From Myxococcota bacterium (GTDB lineage Bacteria > Myxococcota_A > UBA9160 > UBA6930), in the NCBI GenBank assembly GCA_030065975.1, contig JASJCN010000009.1:47-64046 (forward strand): DNA of 64,000 nt. The letters run 5' to 3'. Shown here piece by piece: positions 3,128 to 60,894 of the stretch. Both the position numbers and the translations under genes were made by a program. The notes beneath the pieces are model-generated. The model made no database searches. It was not told where the DNA came from and was given only the letters and a program-made list of their open reading frames with translations. How positions within the stretch are numbered: position 1 is the stretch's first letter; each line of letters starts with the position of its first letter.

Positions 3128-4612
3128 ATGCCCCGGCCGGGCCACTCGTGCGTGGACGTGCCACCATGCGCGGAAGTGAGCGCGCCGCACCCGCCGCCGT
3201 CCCAGAGCCTCGAGCCGGCCTCCCGGAGTACGCGGCGAACGGGCCTCTCCCTCGGCCAGACCCTGGTCTACGGCTCGGGCAACTTCGCCTTCGCGCTGCT
3301 CGGGCTCGTCGTCGCCGTCAACCTGCAGTTCTTCTACACGGACTACGTCGGGCTCACCGCCGGCCTGGTCTCCTGGTCGCTGCTCTTCGCGCGGCTCTTC
3401 GACGGCATCACGGATCCCGTGATGGCCTGGCTCTCCGACCGCGCGCGCACGCGCCTCGGACGGCGGCGGCCCTTCATCCTCGGCGCGGCGATTCCGCTGG
3501 GCTTCGCCTTCTACTTCCTCTTCACCCCGCCGGATCTCGCGAACCCCGAGCAGCGCCAGGGCACCCTGCTGCTCTACATGCTGAGCTTCTACGTCGCGAC
3601 GTACGCGATCTGGACCATCGGCGCGATTCCGTACTTCAGCCTCGGCGCCGAGCTCACCGACGACTACCAGGAGCGCACCCGGGTGATCGCGGTGCGCGAG
3701 GGCTGGGCGCTCTCGGGCCTGCTGGCCGCGACGATCCTCCCGGCCTGGCTGATCCACACCTACGGCGGACGCGACGGCTACTCGTTCATGGGCGCGATCC
3801 TGGGCGGCGGAACGGCGCTCTTCCTGCTCGTCTCCGGTGCTTTCGTGAAGGAACGCCCGGAGTTCCAGGGGCGCGAGTCGATGAGTCCCTTCGCCGGCTG
3901 GGCCGCGACCCTCGCGAACCCCCATTTCCGTCGGGTGCTGCCGCCCTTCGCCCTCTCGGCGATCGCCGGCGCCGTCCCGGCCGTCCTGATCATCTACGTC
4001 TCGGTCTACATCATCGGGACGCCCGAGTGGTGGGCCGAGGCGATCCCCGGCTGGCTCCCCACCTGGTCCTACTACCTGCTGGTCTACTTCACCTCCGGCG
4101 TGATCTCCCTGCCGCTCTGGAACTGGATGTCCGGCCGCTTCGGCAAGCGCACGACCTGGGGCGTGGCCATCGCGCTGGCGACGGTGACCAGCGCCGCCTG
4201 TGCCGCCCTCGACGAGGGACGCGTGCTCTACTTCACCGTGCTGCTGGTGTTCGGTGGCGCGAGCTTCGGCAACTACCTGTCGCTTCCCGCCTCGATCGTG
4301 GCGGACCTGATCGACTACGACGAGGTCGTGACCGGGCGGCGCCGGGAGGCCTCGTACTTCGCGATCTGGGCCTTCGCGACCAAGTTCGGCAACGCCTTCA
4401 CCGGCTTCGCGGCGCTGCAGGTGCTCGAGGCGGTGGGCTACGTGCCGGGCCAGCCACAGACCGAGACGGTCAAGCTGTGGATGGTGGCCATGTACTCCTG
4501 GTTCCCGGCGCTCTTCTACCTGCTGTCGGGGCTCTCGCTCATGCGCTTCCGCTTCACGCGCGACGACCTGCACGCGGCCCAGCAGCGGATCGGACGGGCC
4601 GCGGCGGGCTAG
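3128..4612 (+). CDS. MFS transporter, glycoside-pentoside-hexuronide (GPH)/MelB-like symporter family
   Basis: 494-aa ORF with multiple TM helices. Contains the GPH-type motif FYTDYVGL...LFARLFDGITDPVMAWLSDRARTRLGRRRPF. The true start may lie somewhat downstream of 3128. Confidence 0.85.
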   Translation: MPRPGHSCVDVPPCAEVSAPHPPPSQSLEPASRSTRRTGLSLGQTLVYGSGNFAFALLGLVVAVNLQFFYTDYVGLTAGLVSWSLLFARLFDGITDPVMAWLSDRARTRLGRRRPFILGAAIPLGFAFYFLFTPPDLANPEQRQGTLLLYMLSFYVATYAIWTIGAIPYFSLGAELTDDYQERTRVIAVREGWALSGLLAATILPAWLIHTYGGRDGYSFMGAILGGGTALFLLVSGAFVKERPEFQGRESMSPFAGWAATLANPHFRRVLPPFALSAIAGAVPAVLIIYVSVYIIGTPEWWAEAIPGWLPTWSYYLLVYFTSGVISLPLWNWMSGRFGKRTTWGVAIALATVTSAACAALDEGRVLYFTVLLVFGGASFGNYLSLPASIVADLIDYDEVVTGRRREASYFAIWAFATKFGNAFTGFAALQVLEAVGYVPGQPQTETVKLWMVAMYSWFPALFYLLSGLSLMRFRFTRDDLHAAQQRIGRAAAG

Positions 4613-4693
4613 GGAAGCTCTGCACATGGCTCTCTACACGGACCGTCGGGGCTCGACAGTGGCGTGTAGTCGACATCGGCAGAGCTTCCCTGG
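4609..4693 (+). mobile_element. MITE-like palindromic repeat element, copy 1 (termini CTAGGGAAGCTCTGC ... GCAGAGCTTCCCTGG)
   Basis: The 12-bp perfect terminal inverted repeat GGGAAGCTCTGC/GCAGAGCTTCCC encloses about 55 nt with an internal CTACACG...CGTGTAG inverted repeat. The same element is seen at 26736-26820 and, inverted, at 58911-58995. No coding capacity. Confidence 0.8.
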
Positions 4694-4698
4694 CGGAG

Positions 4699-5253
4699 CT
4701 AGTTGATGCCGCGGGTCCCGACGAGGGTGGCCGGCTCGATGCCCAGGCTGCGCACGGCCGCGGACCAGAGGTCGTCGCGATCGGTGTCGAACACGAGCGG
4801 GTGCGACACGGGGACCACCAGCCAGGCGCCCTCGGCGATCTCGCTCTCGAGCTGGCCGGGGCCCCAGCCGGCGTAGCCCAGGAGGACGCGCAGCTGCTCG
4901 GGCGGCCGCGCCGCGGCGTCGCGCAAGACGTCCTGGGAGCGGCTGTAGCGGATGCCCGGCGCGACGCGTTCGGCATCCAGATCGTCGGGTGCCCCGTCGC
5001 CGAGCAGCACCCAACCGTGCTCGGGGTCGACCGGACCGCCCCAATCGACGCGCGCCTCCTCCGAGCCGTTCCAGCGCATGTCGATGCTCTCGCAGAGCAC
5101 CTCGACGGGAACGTCGGTGGCGCGGTTGAGCACCAGGCCGACGGCTTCGTCTTCCCCGTGGTGCAGCATCAGGACCACGCTGCGCCGGAAGTTCGGGTCG
5201 ACGACGGATTCCATGGCGACGAGCAGCGCCGGCGCAAGGGGGGTGGCGGTCAC
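4699..5253 (-). CDS. YqgE/AlgH family protein (UPF0301)
   Basis: 184 aa. DPNFRRSVVLMLHHGEDEAVGLVLNR...GGPV...LLGYAGWGPGQLESEI is the typical AlgH/YqgE pattern. Confidence 0.9.
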   Translation of the reverse strand: MTATPLAPALLVAMESVVDPNFRRSVVLMLHHGEDEAVGLVLNRATDVPVEVLCESIDMRWNGSEEARVDWGGPVDPEHGWVLLGDGAPDDLDAERVAPGIRYSRSQDVLRDAAARPPEQLRVLLGYAGWGPGQLESEIAEGAWLVVPVSHPLVFDTDRDDLWSAAVRSLGIEPATLVGTRGIN

Positions 5254-8164: not shown

Positions 8165-9519
8165 GCGCCGCTCTCCGAGCCCACGCCCGCAAAGCGCTGT
8201 ACGGCTTCGTCGCGGCAGACGCCCTTCGGGCAGAAGACGGCTTTCAGCACCTCGGCCGAGACCTGGCTCGCCGTGAGCCAGTAGAGATCGCTCTGCACCA
8301 CCACGCTCGCGACGACGATGCGCGGCGCCTCGGCGGGAGCGGCACCGACGAACCACTCATAGCGCCCGTCGGGGTCGCGGCCCGAGAGACTCCCGGTCTT
8401 GCCGGCGACGCGGATGCCCTGGAGCAGCGGATGGCCGCGGCGCGTGCGGAACGCCTTGCGCGCGGTGCCGCGCCGGGTGGTCTCGGTCAGCATCTCGCGC
8501 AGCTCGCTGGTGAGCGAATCCGTGAGGACGCGCTCCTGTCGTTCGGCGCGAGGCAAAACCAGCGACCGCCCCGATGCGTCGGCGACCGCATCGAGCCAGC
8601 GGGGCTCGCGCAGGTATCCCGTGGCGATCACGCCACCGAGCTGGGCCGCGTGCAGCGGAGTGATCCAGGTGCCGTCGAGTCCGGAGCCGAGCTTCCCGAG
8701 GGCGAAGCGATCGCCGCGCGGTGCCTCGGCGTCTCCGGAGGCGTGCCCGCGGGTGGGGGGACGCAGGAATCCGAAGCGATCGATGGCGTCCAGCAGCGCC
8801 GGCTCGCCGATCCGATGCACCGCGAGCTGGGCGAAGCACTGGTTGTTCGACTGGGCCAGCGCGCGGCTCACGCTGATGCTGCGCCCGCTCCGCGGCGGAT
8901 CGACGCGTCGCGGAGAGAGGCGGTACGGATTTCCCACGTAGCGACAGGTCTCGTCGCCGATGCCGGGCTTGCGGTGCAGGGCGGCGGCCGCGGTCACCAC
9001 CTTGATGAGGGAGGCCGCGGGATAGCGGCGCGTGGGCGGAAAGCGCTCGGGATCGGTGGACACGTAGGCGAGCAGGCGACCCGACCACGGGTCCAGCACG
9101 ATCACGTGGCCGAGCTTCACGCGGCCGCGATCGAGCACCTTCCAGATCGCGGTGGTGAGATCGGGATCGAAGTGCGTCGAGAGCACCAGCGGACCCGGGA
9201 CGGCGGGATCCGGAGAGTCCACCGGGACGGCGCGCGGATCAATGCCGAGAGCCTCCCGGCCGGTGGGAACCGCCGCGAAGATCTCGTCGGGCACCATCGG
9301 CGGGGGCGCGGCCACGGGGGGCGGCACGGGTGCGACCGCGGGCGCCACGGCGGAGGGCGTGGGCTCATCGGAATCCGAGCCGCCCACGAGCGCTGCGGTT
9401 CCGCCCAAGAGGGCGAGGACGAAGAGCGCGATGGTGACGCGACCCCTCACGGTCATCCGGCGCCGCCGCGGAGCGGGCGGCGTCAAGGCGCCGTGCATCT
9501 TCCCCCGATAGATGGTCAC
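8161..9519 (-). CDS. Penicillin-binding protein, transpeptidase domain
   Basis: SxxK (ASLIKV), SxN (QSNN) and KTG (AGKTGS) motifs occur in order, with an N-terminal membrane anchor. A more likely start is the ATG at 9456 (MTVRGRVTIALFVLALL). Confidence 0.8.
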   Translation of the reverse strand: MTIYRGKMHGALTPPAPRRRRMTVRGRVTIALFVLALLGGTAALVGGSDSDEPTPSAVAPAVAPVPPPVAAPPPMVPDEIFAAVPTGREALGIDPRAVPVDSPDPAVPGPLVLSTHFDPDLTTAIWKVLDRGRVKLGHVIVLDPWSGRLLAYVSTDPERFPPTRRYPAASLIKVVTAAAALHRKPGIGDETCRYVGNPYRLSPRRVDPPRSGRSISVSRALAQSNNQCFAQLAVHRIGEPALLDAIDRFGFLRPPTRGHASGDAEAPRGDRFALGKLGSGLDGTWITPLHAAQLGGVIATGYLREPRWLDAVADASGRSLVLPRAERQERVLTDSLTSELREMLTETTRRGTARKAFRTRRGHPLLQGIRVAGKTGSLSGRDPDGRYEWFVGAAPAEAPRIVVASVVVQSDLYWLTASQVSAEVLKAVFCPKGVCRDEAVQRFAGVGSESGA

Positions 9520-9540
9520 GCGTCTCCAGCTCGCCCTGAT

Positions 9541-9638
9541 TTCACCGACCGGACTTCACCGACCGGACTTCACCGACCTGAGTTCACCGACCGGACTTCG
9601 CCGATCCGAGTTCACCGATCCGACTGCATCGACCGGAG
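9541..9638. repeat. Tandem repeat, 14-bp unit TTCACCGACCGGAC x7 (last copies degenerate)
   Basis: Read directly: units start at 9541, 9555, 9569, 9583, 9597, 9611 and 9625. Located between the nifU-like stop (9741) and the PBP gene start (9456-9519). Confidence 0.95.
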
Positions 9639-9740
9639 GCCGGCGACGGAATGTGAGCGACCGAACCGGGCTCGGAGTGAGGTGCCGGGTCGGGGGAGGC
9701 CCTGCACCGCGCTCGTGCGCACCCGGTCGCCCGCGAACCG

Positions 9741-25122: not shown

Positions 25123-25320
25123 GGGCAAAGGGTTGCCGCGTCCAGATGAAGGTTGGCTGAGCCCGGGCCTTCGACGGCGGACTCCCCCAGGGGCATCTCC
25201 GCTGCCGGAGGCGGGAGCCGGACTGCTAAGATCCGCCCGCTCCGAGGCGCACCCGCACCCCAGACGCCGGCGCCACACCCCTGTTCGGAGTCCAAGGAAA
25301 CCGCGCGCCAGAGCCCTCTC

Positions 25321-26739
25321 GTGGCCGGCCGCATCGAGGAACGGTTGGCACGTCGCTTCATCATCTGTGACGGCGCGGAGCTCGCACGGCTCTGGGGCCG
25401 CATCGGTGCCGGCGAGACCGAGGAGCTCACCTGGGTGCCGCGCGAGGACGAGTCCCGCGCCCGGCCTCCGGGCTTCCGTGCGCTGGCCGGCGGACTCTGC
25501 GCCGAGGCGATCGGGAAGCTCGACCCGAAGGATGGGGACGAGTTCGCCCTGGTGAGCGAGGAGGGCCCCTTCGTGCGCGCCGCCGTCGCGGCGCTCTCCG
25601 AGGCCGCCCCGGCGGCTCCGGTCCTGGTGATGTCCGACCGGGTGGGCGACGACGAGCTGCCCGAGCACCCCTGCCTGCGCACGACCGGGCTTCGGACCCT
25701 GATTCGCGACGACGTGGACGCGGAGTTCGCCCATCTCGGCAACCTGCGCCGGGTCGTCGCCCTGCGAGAGCTGCTCGGCGGCCGCGAGAAGATCGCGATC
25801 CTGCTGCAGCCCGATCCCGACCCCGACGGCATCGCGGGCGGCTATGCCCTGCGCATCCTGCTGGGCCGCAAGTCCCCGACGGCTCCCCTCGTGTCCTTCG
25901 GCGACATCAAGCGCCCCGAGAATCTCGCGATGGTCAACGCGCTCGGCATCGAGGTGCGCACCATCGAGCCCGACGACCTCGACGAGTTCGACGGCATCGT
26001 GCTGGTGGACGTGCAGCCGACGGTCTTCGGCGATCCGCCGCCGGCGCGCGTGCTCTCGGTGGACGCCGTCATCGATCACCACCCCGAGCGCTCGGGCTAC
26101 GACGCCGTGATCCGCGACATCCGCACCGGCTACGGCGCCACGGCCTCGATCCTCACCGAGTACCTCCAGGCCGCGGGCGTCGAGATTCGCGCCAAGGTGG
26201 GCACCGCGCTGCTCTACGGCATCAAGAGCGACACCCAGCTGCTCGGCCGCGACACCAGCTCGGCCGACATGCAGGCCTTCGCGACGGTGCACGCGGCCCA
26301 CAGCCCGGCGCTGCTGCGACGCATCGAGCGCCCCGCCCTGCCCCAGGACGGCCTGCGCGCCTTCGGGCGTGCGCTCGCGAAGAGCCACGTCGAGGAAGGC
26401 ATCCACCTGCTCGTGCTCGGACGCGTGCGCGAGGACGTGATCCCCCAGGTGGCCGACATGGGCCTGCAGGCCGAGGGCGCCGAGTGGGCGATCGCGGCGG
26501 GCACCGTCGGCAGCGATCTCGTCTTCTCCGTCCGCAACGTGGGCTACGTGCGCGCGGCCGGCGAGGTGGTGCGCGGCATCGTCGAGGGCATCGGCGTGGG
26601 CGGCGGCCACCGCTCCATGGCCAAGGGCATCATCCCCGTGGCCGCCTTCCGCGAGCGCTACGGCAAGGCCGACGCCGCGACGGTGCACCGGATCCTGCTC
26701 GAGGCCTTCTCGAGCGCCATCCAGGGCGAATCCTCCTAG
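25321..26739 (+). CDS. DHH/DHHA1-family phosphoesterase (NrnA-like) with extra N-terminal domain
   Basis: DPDPDGIAG (motif II), VIDHHP (the DHH motif) and [10 protein letters not shown] (the DHHA1 GGGH motif). The start is tentatively GTG 25321. Confidence 0.8.
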
Positions 26740-26820
26740 GGAAGCTCTGCAAGGGTCTCCCTACACGAACCATCGGAGCCCACGAGTCCCATGTCGTCCA
26801 CAGCTGCAGAGCTTCCCTAG
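26736..26820 (+). mobile_element. MITE-like palindromic repeat element, copy 2 (CTAGGGAAGCTCTGC ... GCAGAGCTTCCCTAG)
   Basis: Perfect 15-bp terminal inverted repeats. The interior is about 70-80% identical by eye to copy 1 in the same orientation. It fills the whole intergenic space between the DHH gene and the pterin dehydratase gene. Confidence 0.85.
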
Positions 26821-27113
26821 TGGCACTCCCGGTGCTCGAGGGGGAGGAGCTCGCGCGAGCGCTGGCCGACCTCCCTGGCTGGGACGTCGTCGACGGCAAG
26901 CTCCACCGCGAATTCCGCTTCGCGGACTTCAACGAGGCGTTCGGCTTCATGAGCCGCGCAGCCCTCGTGGCCGAGCAGATGAACCACCACCCGGAGTGGT
27001 TCAACGTCTACGCCATGGTGCGGGTCGACCTCACCACCCACGATTCGGGCGGCATCACCCGCAACGACGTGGACCTCGCCACCGCGATGAACCGCTTCGC
27101 GGACCCGCGCTAG
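26820..27113 (+). CDS. 4a-hydroxytetrahydrobiopterin (pterin-4-alpha-carbinolamine) dehydratase
   Basis: [61 protein letters not shown] is the PCD signature. GTG at 26820 (or 26832) is in frame within the 209-aa track ORF. Confidence 0.85.
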
Positions 27114-37593: not shown

Positions 37594-38002
37594 GCGCCGC
37601 CTTGCGCAGATCGGAGTAGCTCCGCTCCTTGGTGCCGACCTTCGGGGCGGCCGTCTTCGGGGCGGGCTTCTTCTTCGCGGCGGTCTTCTTCTTCGCCGCC
37701 GTCTTCTTGCGAGCGGTGGTCTTCTTCCTGGCGCCGGTCTTCTTGCGGGCCGCCTTCTTCGTCGAGGCCTTCTTCGTCGAGGCCTTCTTGCGCGTGGCGG
37801 TCTTCTTCCTGGCGGAGGTCTTCTTCTTCGCCGTCTTCTTCGTGCTCGCCTTCTTGCGGGCCGTCTTCTTCTTCGCCGAGGCCTTCTTCCGGGTGGCGGT
37901 CTTCTTGCGCGTCGCCTTCTTCCGGGCCGGAGCCTTCTTGCGGGAGGCGGTCTTCTTGCGGCCGGCGGTCTTCTTGCGGGTCGTCTTCTTGCGGGCAGCC
38001 AT
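37574..38002 (-). CDS. Histone H1-like lysine-rich repeat nucleoid protein
   Basis: 142 aa from the ATG at 38002. It is almost entirely (T/A)xRKK(T/A)(A/S) repeats: MAARKKTTRKKTAGRKKTASRKKAPARKKATRKKTATRKK... It ends in a short non-repeat tail, ERSYSDLRKAALSWLRL. The purine-rich RBS gagagggga lies upstream. Confidence 0.8.
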   Translation of the reverse strand: MAARKKTTRKKTAGRKKTASRKKAPARKKATRKKTATRKKASAKKKTARKKASTKKTAKKKTSARKKTATRKKASTKKASTKKAARKKTGARKKTTARKKTAAKKKTAAKKKPAPKTAAPKVGTKERSYSDLRKAALSWLRL

Positions 38003-38088
38003 GTCATCCCCTCTCGTGAATTCGCGAGCAGAGTAGCCGGTGGGGTGGACGCGTCGAGCACGGGTGATCGATCGTCCGCTTCGACGGA

Positions 38089-58865: not shown

Positions 58866-58910
58866 CCGACCGACGGGCTCGAGGCGACGGTGACGTTGCG
58901 GCGCGGATCC

Positions 58911-58995
58911 CCAGGGAAGCTCTGCGGATGTCGACTACATGCGGCTGCCGGGCTCCGACGGTCCGTGTAGAGAACCCCGTGCAGAGCTTCCCTAG
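58911..58995 (-). mobile_element. MITE-like palindromic repeat element, copy 3 (inverted relative to copies 1 and 2)
   Basis: CCAGGGAAGCTCTGC...GCAGAGCTTCCCTAG. The interior matches the reverse complement of copy 1 (ggatgtcgactacatgcggctgccgggctccgacggtccgtgtagagaaccc versus cgatgtcgactacacgccactgtcgagccccgacggtccgtgtagagagcc). It is flanked by GGATCC/GATCC on both sides. Confidence 0.85.
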
Positions 58996-59004
58996 GATCC
59001 GCCC

Positions 59005-60894
59005 ATGTCCATGCTTCCCGCTCGGTCCGGCTCGGCCCTCTTCCGGCTTCGCCTCCTCGCCCCGCTCCTCCTCTTCCTGCCCCTGCTGTCGGGCTGTCGT
59101 CACGCCCCCGAGCCGGTGGCGCCTCTTCCGCAGCTTCCCGCTGGCATCGAGTCGGAGCGCATCCGCGCGGACGTCGCGTGGCTGGCCGCCGACGAGCAGG
59201 GGGGCCGGGGCATCGGAACGCCGGGGCTCGCGCAGGCGGCCGACTGGCTGGCCGCGCGCTTCGCGGAAGCGGGCTTCGAGGGCGGCGCGCCGGAGGGCGG
59301 CTTCCTCCAGCGCTTCCAGGTTCCCGTGTCGATCCAGGTGGAGCAGGCCACCCTCGAGATCCCGAACGCGACCTCCGGTACGAGGGCCGGGGAGCGGGGC
59401 GTCGACTTCGAGGCCCTGCTCGCGAGCACGAGCGGGACCCTCCCCGAGGAGGTGGTGTTCGCGGGCTTCGGCATCAGCGACGAGGAGACCGGCTGGGACG
59501 ACTACGCCGGCCTCGACGTGTCGGGGAAGACCGTCCTCGTACTCGACGGTCGCCCGGGCGAGAGCGGCGACGATCCGTTGGGCGGAGGCCGGGGCGCGGC
59601 GTTCGCACGTCCGGCGTACAAGCTGCTCAACGCGAGACGCAACGGGGCCGCGGCCCTGCTGATCGCGCCTGCCCTCGCCGACGTGCCGGGCTTTCCGGGA
59701 ATCGGCGGCCACGGCGGCGCGAACCCGAGCATCCGGGACGCGGGCCTGCTCGCGATCAGCCTGTCGCGCCCTTTCGCGGCGGATCTGCTCGCGGCGGCGG
59801 GCGAGGACCTGGGCGCCCTGCAGCGGCGTGCCGACGAGGAGCGGGAGGCCGGCGGCAAGCCCCTCGACGTGCGCCTCGTGGGAGCCGTCGAGATCGAACG
59901 ACGCGACGGCGAGGTCGCGAACGTGATCGGCATCCTGCGCGGGAGCGATCCGCTGCTCGCCGAGCAGGCCGTCGTGATCGGCGCCCACTACGACCACCTG
60001 GGCACGGGAGCCTTCGGCTCGCTCAGTCCGAGCCGCCTCGGCGAGATCCACTCCGGTGCCGACGACAACGCCTCGGGGACCGCCGCCCTGGTCGCCCTCG
60101 CCCGCGCCTTCGGGCAGGGCGAGCGGCCGCGCCGAACGCTCATCCTGATCGGCTTCACCGCCGAAGAGGCGGGCCTGCTCGGCTCGGCCCACTACGTGAC
60201 GACGCCGAGCGTCCCGATCGAGGACACCGTCGCCATGGTCAACCTCGACATGGTGGGCCGCTTGCGAGAGGACCGCCTGGTGGCGTTCGGCAGCGAGAGC
60301 GGGAGTGGCCTCCGCGAGTTGGTCGACGCGGCAGCCGAGGGCACGGGCCTGCGGATCGAGCATCAGGTGGGTGCCCAGGGCCCCTCGGACCAGACGTCCT
60401 TCGCGAGCCAGCGTGTCCCCGTGCTCTTCTTCTTCACGGGCACCCACCCCCAGTACCACACGCCGGACGACCAGGTGGAGCTGGTCGAGGCCGAGGGCAT
60501 CGCGCGCGTCGCTTCGCTCACGCTCTCGGTGGCGCGCGGCCTGCTCGAAGACGAGGAGCGTGCGGAGTTCCTGGGCAACGTCGCGGGCCACGGCTCGGGC
60601 GCTCTGCCGGCCGGCGGCGGAGGCTACGGCCCGAGCCTCGGCACGATCCCCGCCTTCGGCGGCGAGCCCGTCGAGGGCGTCCGCCTCTCGGGAGTGAGGC
60701 CGGGAAGCCCGGCCGAGGCGGCGGGCCTGCAGGGCGGCGACGTGATCGTCCGATTCGCCGGAAGCTCGGTGCGCAACCTCGAGGAGTTCGCCGCGCTGCT
60801 CTTCTCCCAGGTGCCCGGCCGGGAGGTCGAGATCGAGGTGCTGCGCGACGGAGAGCGCATCTCGACCCGCGCGACCCTGGGACAACGGCGCTAG
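59005..60894 (+). CDS. M28-family aminopeptidase lipoprotein with PA domain and C-terminal PDZ domain
   Basis: Lipobox LLSGC. M28 metal ligand contexts GAHYDH, GADDNASG and TAEEAGLLGS. The C-terminal PDZ is GVRLSGVRPGSPAEAAGLQGGDVIVRFAG. Confidence 0.85.
   Translation: MSMLPARSGSALFRLRLLAPLLLFLPLLSGCRHAPEPVAPLPQLPAGIESERIRADVAWLAADEQGGRGIGTPGLAQAADWLAARFAEAGFEGGAPEGGFLQRFQVPVSIQVEQATLEIPNATSGTRAGERGVDFEALLASTSGTLPEEVVFAGFGISDEETGWDDYAGLDVSGKTVLVLDGRPGESGDDPLGGGRGAAFARPAYKLLNARRNGAAALLIAPALADVPGFPGIGGHGGANPSIRDAGLLAISLSRPFAADLLAAAGEDLGALQRRADEEREAGGKPLDVRLVGAVEIERRDGEVANVIGILRGSDPLLAEQAVVIGAHYDHLGTGAFGSLSPSRLGEIHSGADDNASGTAALVALARAFGQGERPRRTLILIGFTAEEAGLLGSAHYVTTPSVPIEDTVAMVNLDMVGRLREDRLVAFGSESGSGLRELVDAAAEGTGLRIEHQVGAQGPSDQTSFASQRVPVLFFFTGTHPQYHTPDDQVELVEAEGIARVASLTLSVARGLLEDEERAEFLGNVAGHGSGALPAGGGGYGPSLGTIPAFGGEPVEGVRLSGVRPGSPAEAAGLQGGDVIVRFAGSSVRNLEEFAALLFSQVPGREVEIEVLRDGERISTRATLGQRR

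Follow-up and report, generated by a model that had tools for sequence, protein, structure and literature searches.

CTAG-flanked repeats at gene ends in an uncultured Myxococcota lineage: a probable family of miniature elements mobilized by an IS5-group transposase

Why does the stop codon of a gene lie inside a repeat? In a 64-kb stretch of Myxococcota DNA (contig JASJCN010000009.1, the whole stretch hereafter called the window), a transporter gene ends with a TAG at the very edge of a short, hairpin-forming repeat, one of three copies in the window. An earlier reading of the sequence (the original prediction) described the repeats as a new MITE- or REP-like family and proposed that the insertion had defined the C-terminus of the transporter. 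The data point to a different order of events. The repeats are very probably MITEs (transposable elements of miniature size with inverted repeats) that are moved in trans by an IS5-group DDE transposase and inserted at CTAG, with duplication of 4 bp; the CTAG at the flanks most likely represents doubled target sequence and not element sequence.

Three copies in the window and a family beyond it

The repeats lie at the coordinates given by the original prediction, each as a 77-bp core between 4-bp flanks:

4609..4612, unstranded: left flank of copy 1, CTAG, the presumed left copy of the target duplication; includes the MFS/GPH transporter's stop codon, TAG (4610-4612)
4613..4689, + strand: MITE copy 1, 77-bp core; ends at 4613-4623 (GGAAGCTCTGC) and 4679-4689 (GCAGAGCTTCC), inner repeat CTACACG/CGTGTAG
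4690..4693, unstranded: right flank of copy 1, CTGG, the presumed right copy of the target duplication with one base changed
26736..26739, unstranded: left flank of copy 2, CTAG, presumed target duplication; holds the TAG stop of the DHH phosphoesterase gene
26740..26816, + strand: MITE copy 2, 77-bp core; the most diverged interior, 16/55 positions off the family consensus
26817..26820, unstranded: right flank of copy 2, CTAG, presumed target duplication; its final G doubles as base one of the dehydratase gene's GTG start (26820-26822)
58911..58914, unstranded: flank of copy 3, CCAG, one base changed
58915..58991, - strand: MITE copy 3, 77-bp core, within a 139-bp spacer upstream of the M28 peptidase gene
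58992..58995, unstranded: flank of copy 3, CTAG

In all three copies the core ends in perfect 11-nt inverted repeats, GGAAGCTCTGC on the left and GCAGAGCTTCC on the right (11-12 nt if written GGAAGCTCTGC(A)), which enclose a 55-bp interior. The core has no open reading frame (ORF), in keeping with the predicted non-autonomous mobile element with terminal inverted repeats. Copy 3 runs in the opposite direction to copies 1 and 2. Perfect CTAG-bounded termini had been claimed for every copy: the 11-nt ends bear this out, but only copy 2 carries CTAG on both sides, one flank being off by a single base in copies 1 and 3 (CTGG and CCAG). Similarly, the inner inverted repeat CTACACG...CGTGTAG, thought to be conserved throughout, is intact in copy 1, altered at one position in copy 3, and degraded in copy 2. 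The prediction that each copy folds into one long hairpin is upheld on either strand, with energies of -41.4 to -48.9 kcal/mol and z-scores of -4.3 to -7.4. As an aside, the copy 3 target sat in the 3-nt loop of an 8-bp palindrome (window 58897-59003), and its flanks, GCGGATCC and GGATCCGC, are mutual reverse complements.

Could the repeats be chance palindromes or an assembly artefact? Only the high G+C content (70-74% in the window, 72% in the Myxococcota genome), which favors spurious stems, speaks for this, and the idea can be dismissed with near certainty. The exact 11-mer GGAAGCTCTGC has six matches in the window, all at the six termini; with one mismatch allowed there are nine, against 2.4 +/- 1.6 in shuffled sequences, and 0/100 shuffles reach nine. 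The same DNA, with the same copies, is present in two independent metagenome assemblies, at 99.94% (locus L014) and 99.4% (L070) identity, and 14 further copies exist elsewhere. A search with nhmmer, which covered the window and 152 kb of flanks, found no degenerate copies with imperfect ends.

The family is thus not confined to the three loci, as the original prediction required: it comprises 17 distinct copies, of which the window holds three; the other 14 sit at separate loci on contigs of the metagenome JAAUYD01, which also carries this Myxococcota population (G+C content of the family-bearing contigs, 0.70-0.74). A scan of the metagenome returned 53 loci, 13 of which hold the 14 further copies of the 77-bp family; among these 13, L070 alone overlaps the window. 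The 17 copies can be aligned from end to end, their orientation can be defined, and they form sub-families (column 64, for example, is A in eight copies, G in five, and C in four).

Outside the family, the ends travel much farther than the interior. A scan of one genome per species, in which both termini had to lie 45-65 nt apart, yielded 13 loci, 11 of them elements of 67-84 bp with the same ends and unrelated interiors; the hosts are Ideonella, Methylibium, Polaromonas, Mycoavidus, other Burkholderiales metagenome-assembled genomes (MAGs), a Gammaproteobacteria MAG, and Gemmatimonadota MAGs. The terminus GGAAGCTCTGCA is accordingly common to short elements in Burkholderiales, Gemmatimonadota, one Gammaproteobacteria MAG, and many metagenome contigs, a breadth that points to a widespread IS5-group lineage repeatedly spawning MITEs. 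A single-terminus scan of viral contigs gave 52 loci, mostly chance matches and no full-length insertion sequence, among them one clear 161-bp MITE with a CTAG duplication (L016). BLAST of a window copy against plasmids produced no meaningful match, and a literature search with the 11-mer produced primer coincidences only.

Thirteen metagenome loci and two genome loci with the terminus GGAAGCTCTGCTTCC were set aside: this terminus forms a short hairpin by itself, none of 18 flanks is YTAR (Y, C or T; R, A or G), and the loci belong to an unrelated repeat class of Planctomycete type. Units of 64 bp bounded by GGAAGCTCTGCTTCC occur several per contig (L092 3883-8444, L109 46-225, L115 2498-3313, L007 4200-4420), and in L007 they adjoin 'cccaagctctgcttggg'-type hairpins of a Planctomycetaceae MAG.

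IS5-type ends, duplicated targets, and empty sites

Whose ends are these? The extended terminal consensus across the related families, GGAAGCTCTGCA[ACT]AAGT, resembles the ends of Escherichia coli IS5, which read GGAAGGTGCGAATAAG and GGAAGGTGCGAACAAGT in strain K-12; written as GGAAGGTGCGAA[TC]AAG(T), the IS5 end matches 12/17 positions of the consensus. A closer connection comes from the 161-bp relative in L016: its terminal BLAST matches in Burkholderiales plasmids are the ends of full-length IS5-family elements:

Ralstonia plasmid, 1189 bp: IS5-family element with ends GGATGCTCTGAACAATG and GGAATCTCTGCACAAATC and the duplication CTAG
Methylibium PM1 plasmid, 1185 bp: IS5-family element with ends GGAACGTCTGCAAAACTCG and GGAAGGTCTGCACAACGCG and the duplication TTAA
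Burkholderia sp. PAMC 26561 plasmid, ~1.2 kb plus a group II intron: IS5-family element with ends GGAAGCTCTGCAAAACTG and GGAAGCCCTGCATAACGC and the duplication TTAG

These elements share the terminal pattern GGAAnnTCTGCAnAA, and their transposases (~320 aa) match the NCBIfam model NF033581 (IS5 family) with E-values down to 1e-100. One end of the Burkholderia plasmid element, GGAAGCTCTGCAAAAC, is identical to the window terminus over 12 nt. The IS5-family element at L137 96-3458 (NZ_CP014310.1 431995-435357), with ends GGAAGCTCTGCAAAAC and GGAAGCCCTGCATAAC and a TTAG duplication, has its transposase gene interrupted by a group II intron (ltrA) and is not annotated as an insertion sequence in the plasmid table used.

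Do the short elements, too, duplicate their targets? Among related short elements from other taxa, 14/36 have identical 4-mers on both flanks, against a permuted mean of 3.2; 0/10000 permutations reach 14. The identical pairs include four cases of CTAA/CTAA and three each of TTAG/TTAG, TTAA/TTAA, and CTAG/CTAG; these YTAR flanks are the same on both sides of one copy and vary between copies. As direct rather than inverted repeats, CTAA/CTAA and TTAG/TTAG represent duplicated target sites, not outward continuations of the inverted repeats. Ends that match IS5-group elements, combined with a 4-bp YTAR duplication, place the window family with the MITEs mobilized by IS5-group transposases.

If CTAG is a duplicated target, removal of the element and one CTAG should leave the site as it was before insertion, and at two of the three loci this is what relatives of the host show. 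At the copy 1 locus, two related species whose MFS proteins are 81% and 79% identical to that of the window lack the element, and both keep the gene order HxlR–MFS–DUF179–Rce1-like–PilZ. One has a 16-bp spacer; in the other, the convergent stops overlap in a single CTAG (…gggCTAGttc…), the corresponding window sequence being …gggCTAG[element]CTGGcggagCTAGttgatgcc…. At the copy 2 locus, three relatives (84-85% identity) are likewise free of the element, and the stop of the DHH gene and the start of the dehydratase gene either overlap as TGATG or lie 11 bp apart. Without copy 2 and one CTAG, the window reads …tcctcCTAGtggc… / …tcctcCTAGtggcactc…, a TAG/GTG overlap of the same design as in the relatives, and the N-terminus of the dehydratase then aligns with MARPVLGEAEL of a relative. 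At both loci, then, excising the element with one CTAG restores the gene junctions of the relatives. L074, which shares a luciferase-like oxidoreductase with the window, was considered as a further empty site and rejected: its neighboring genes differ, so the locus is not orthologous.

What kind of insertion would produce this arrangement? The identity of the mobilizing enzyme and the chemistry of insertion are what we infer: an IS5-group DDE transposase, encoded elsewhere in the genome, would bind both ends and place the element in a YTAR site (CTAG in this case) by cutting the two strands 4 nt apart, and repair of these cuts would leave CTAG on both sides. In a 72% G+C genome in which CTAG is scarce and mostly part of C+TAG stops, insertions would fall mostly at gene ends; the duplication would regenerate the stop codon and, at copy 2, also the first base of the next start, leaving both coding sequences intact.

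Several observations weigh against this account. At the copy 3 locus the sole close relative is rearranged: a P450 gene occupies the spacer, the element is absent, and there is no clean empty site. No presence/absence variation was seen within the population, the only locus covered twice (L070, 99.4%) being occupied in both, and absence from the relatives could in principle reflect precise loss rather than gain. Neither the transposase with matching ends that the original prediction proposed to look for nor any other, IS5-type enzymes included (by tblastn), was found in the 64-kb window or in ~160 kb of other family contigs. As for the flanks, 11/17 family copies have at least one other than CTAG, and the direct-duplication test within the family gives 6 matches against 5.9 expected. 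The gene ends behind the stop-codon counts below were called by a crude criterion (G+C content at third codon positions, GC3, of at least 0.9).

The flanks of the window family deserve a closer look. They are identical in 6/17 copies and differ by one base in 7/17; across the 17 copies, 12.5% of flank positions depart from the consensus. The duplication test is uninformative in this family because its flanks are nearly all CTAG, which is palindromic; the argument for duplication therefore rests on the related families, the full-length insertion sequences, and the empty sites. In a side count, 5 of the 14 non-CTAG flanks are CCAG beside the GG of the element (CTAGG to CCAGG, either strand counted), the change expected from very-short-patch-type T:G repair or from GC-biased mutation. 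The flanks may thus decay faster than neutral sequence, which would make them a poor clock.

Stop codons, hairpins, and the competing explanations

The genes that surround the three copies are as follows:

3128..4612, + strand: MFS/GPH-family transporter gene, whose last bases form the left CTAG of copy 1; start codon uncertain, orthologs of 447-482 aa
4699..5253, - strand: DUF179/AlgH-like gene, convergent with the MFS gene, with its own CTAG stop at 4699-4702
25153..26739, + strand: DHH-family phosphoesterase gene, longest ORF (464 aa in the public annotation), ending in the left CTAG of copy 2
26820..27113, + strand: pterin-4a-carbinolamine dehydratase gene, starting at the right edge of copy 2
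59005..60894, + strand: M28 peptidase gene, 9 bp downstream of copy 3

The spacer of the convergent MFS/GPH and DUF179/AlgH-like genes is taken up by copy 1, and copy 2 lies between the DHH phosphoesterase and dehydratase genes on the same strand. The original prediction placed copy 1 and the TAG stop at 4610-4612 correctly; what it made of them probably does not hold. If the flanking CTAG is the duplicated target, an in-frame TAG most likely ended the MFS gene before the insertion. Orthologous MFS proteins end in …GR plus 0 to 12 residues, a range that includes the …GRAAAG of the window. On this comparison of sequences, copy 1 probably does not define the C-terminus of the transporter.

Why, then, are stop codons so often found at the edge of the element? 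CTAG, in which both strands contain TAG, is about five times rarer in the window than base composition predicts (34 sites against 164 expected), and 23 of the 34 (68%) coincide with putative gene stops; CTAA, TTAG, and TTAA occur 3, 4, and 0 times, respectively. Across the family, a TAG or TAA in the flank ends an ORF with GC3 of at least 0.9 in 12/17 copies (71%), in two of them on both sides. The two fractions match at about 70%: the copies lie at gene ends because the CTAG target survives mostly at stops. Transposon copies can therefore seem to "provide" stop codons through target preference alone, the duplication restoring the stop. Stop usage in this lineage has a peculiarity of its own. 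TGA is usually the dominant stop in GC-rich bacteria; here, and in relatives without the element, TAG accounts for about half of the putative stops and TAA is almost absent, so that the TAG share looks unusual. TAG stops follow a C in 24/30 cases in the window. The pattern was seen across the window and loci L073-L113 and L128-L136, and relatives without the element share it.

Are the ends under a constraint that the interior escapes? The question was addressed with the four copies that had not been selected by the search pattern, namely all window copies plus the second one of L102: changed positions number 0/88 in the termini and 36/220 in the interior (Fisher p = 5e-6). Comparison of the window with L070 gives 36 differences over 5703 bp (0.6%), of which three fall inside the 77-bp core (p = 0.013); two of the three strike both sides of one inner-stem pair without restoring the pairing. 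From these comparisons the interior appears to drift freely. The intact termini are most simply read as the outcome of repeated rounds of amplification, in which the master copies diverge and mobility is limited to elements whose ends are intact; the sub-family structure fits such a history.

Two other explanations begin from the hairpin. In one, the repeats would be structured RNAs or protein-binding sites maintained by the host, serving as 3'-end stabilizers, attenuators, or stop-start spacers, their transposon origin being merely historical. The hairpins are indeed very stable, a stop codon lies immediately next to 12/17 copies, the termini show no variation against 12-15% divergence in interior and flanks, and 8 of the 10 copies that abut a single gene end share one orientation relative to the gene, although this bias is not significant (binomial p about 0.11). 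Yet the features expected of a functional RNA did not emerge: RNAalifold found no pair with a compensatory change; covariation over 26 pairs (the terminal and CTACACG/CGTGTAG stems) scores 0.025 against 0.034 in shuffles, no excess; Rfam has no match at gathering thresholds (at E <= 1, only chance matches to microRNA hairpins, which score far below threshold); and no promoter-like or terminator-like patterns, including a T-tract terminator, were found for the copies. The inner-stem changes break pairs, the second strain has more substitutions in the core than its surroundings would predict, and the association with stops equals the background share of CTAG sites at stops. A host-maintained role of this kind is improbable.

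The other explanation, which the "REP-like" of the original prediction evoked, is a repetitive extragenic palindromic (REP) or REPIN-type element that is spread by a REP-associated tyrosine transposase (RAYT, IS200/IS605-like) and kept by the host as mRNA hairpins. Short, intergenic, hairpin-forming repeats at gene ends match the REPIN outline; the interior CTAC…GTAG recalls the GTAG head of REPs, and termini far better conserved than the interior would suit this reading as well. Three properties set the window family apart: (i) the single terminus GGAAGCTCTGCA is not self-complementary, and the hairpin needs both ends, unlike a REP unit; (ii) the related families and the full-length insertion sequences carry 4-bp direct target duplications, which single-strand transposition of the RAYT/IS200 type is not expected to make; and (iii) the termini match IS5-group ends, down to the same 12 nt in one real IS5-family element. 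No Y1 transposase-like sequence was detected in the window or family contigs, a weak test made by tblastn with one IS200 TnpA (best E 0.16). A RAYT-borne origin is very hard to credit, and the label "REP-like" is better dropped.

With an IS5-mobilized MITE as the preferred explanation, is the element merely a passenger? That it is more than passive, through a scarless, stop-codon-seeking insertion at CTAG or through a constraint that still acts on the ends, is unlikely, if less so than either alternative above. If true, CTAG specificity combined with a 4-bp duplication may serve as a general strategy in very GC-rich genomes, rebuilding the stop and, where genes overlap, the next start; a constraint on the ends could mean that an IS5-type transposase not seen here still moves the element, or that a host protein derived from such an enzyme binds the ends. 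The 81-bp hairpin may also influence mRNA stability or translational coupling: at copy 2, the base of its stem has the upstream TAG on one side and the downstream GTG on the other, an arrangement that might preserve termination-reinitiation coupling across 81 nt.

The scans also brought up repeats of other kinds. Locus L098 (2337-2410; JAAUYD010208824.1) holds a second MITE family of the same metagenome, 74 bp with longer ends, GGAAGCTCTGCACAAGTCC, that resembles elements in L009, L079, and L081. In a Burkholderiales MAG (L008 4282-4589), a second, truncated element copy runs into ~60-bp tandem repeats at the contig end. The window itself has a tandem array of ~8 copies of the 14-bp unit CGACCGGACTTCAC, 69-88% identical, near a gene end (9518-9643), and a long array with 15/18/30-nt periodicity and 15 overlapping 120-nt matches (37622-38005); the latter overlaps ORFs called by GC3 and probably encodes a repetitive peptide.

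A known kind of element in a new host lineage

How new is the family? The literature searched contains no MITE family described for Myxococcota, and this one, from an uncultured lineage, is previously undescribed; the kind of element is already known, as its IS5-type ends, YTAR duplication, and the precedent of MITEPsy1 attest, so that the predicted novelty applies to the family alone. The original prediction was right that the repeats are not REP, BIME, ERIC, Correia, or RUP elements, and to our knowledge the termini are unlike the ends of Correia, ERIC, RUP, and BOX elements. None of these results overturns current understanding. Their use is practical: annotation pipelines should mask the family, which could mislead searches for small RNAs or terminators.

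REP/REPIN elements are short, abundant, intergenic hairpin repeats, often at the 3' ends of genes, with units of 20-40 nt that are each an imperfect palindrome bearing a conserved GTAG-type head, a Y1 transposase, and no target duplication; the window element differs in a hairpin that needs both termini, in its IS5-like ends, and in the 4-bp duplications. Correia elements (CREE/NEMIS) of Neisseria are MITEs of ~100-150 bp that are abundant near genes, are co-transcribed, form hairpins, and can alter the expression of their neighbors; they have 26-bp ends and duplicate TA, and they differ from the window element in end sequence, with no sequence similarity between the two. Farther afield, the Tourist and PIF-Harbinger MITEs of eukaryotes are non-autonomous and moved by IS5-related DDE transposases; they share a short, T/A-centered duplication with the window family but have a eukaryotic host, a duplication of 3 bp (TWA), and other ends.

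Nearer are the IS5-group insertion sequences themselves, with the pattern GGAAnnTCTGCAnAA, the 12 identical nucleotides in one Burkholderia plasmid element, and a 4-bp YTAR-like duplication. They are ~1.2 kb long and encode a ~320-aa transposase; the window element consists of the ends and 55 bp of unrelated interior. Among known elements, MITEPsy1 of Pseudomonas syringae pv. phaseolicola comes closest: it is 100 nt long, has the ends GGAAGGTCTGAAAAAGCC, and duplicates 4 nt of its target, CTAG or YTAA (Bardaji et al., 2011; PMC3189936). The IS5-family element ISPsy2 is its presumed source, and MITEPsy1 itself has been caught transposing in a trap (PMC3189936). Both elements are short (100 nt vs 77 nt here) and non-coding, have IS5-type ends beginning GGAAG.TCTG (GGAAGGTCTGAAAAAGCC in MITEPsy1, GGAAGCTCTGCACAGGG here), duplicate 4 nt at CTAG or YTAA, and are presumed to be mobilized in trans by an IS5-family transposase, ISPsy2 in the case of MITEPsy1. 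The interiors are unrelated, and the host here is a Myxococcota bacterium with 72% G+C. MITEPsy1 has a known partner and experimentally demonstrated mobility; for the window element both are predictions from sequence. The strong clustering on stop codons is a feature of the window family.

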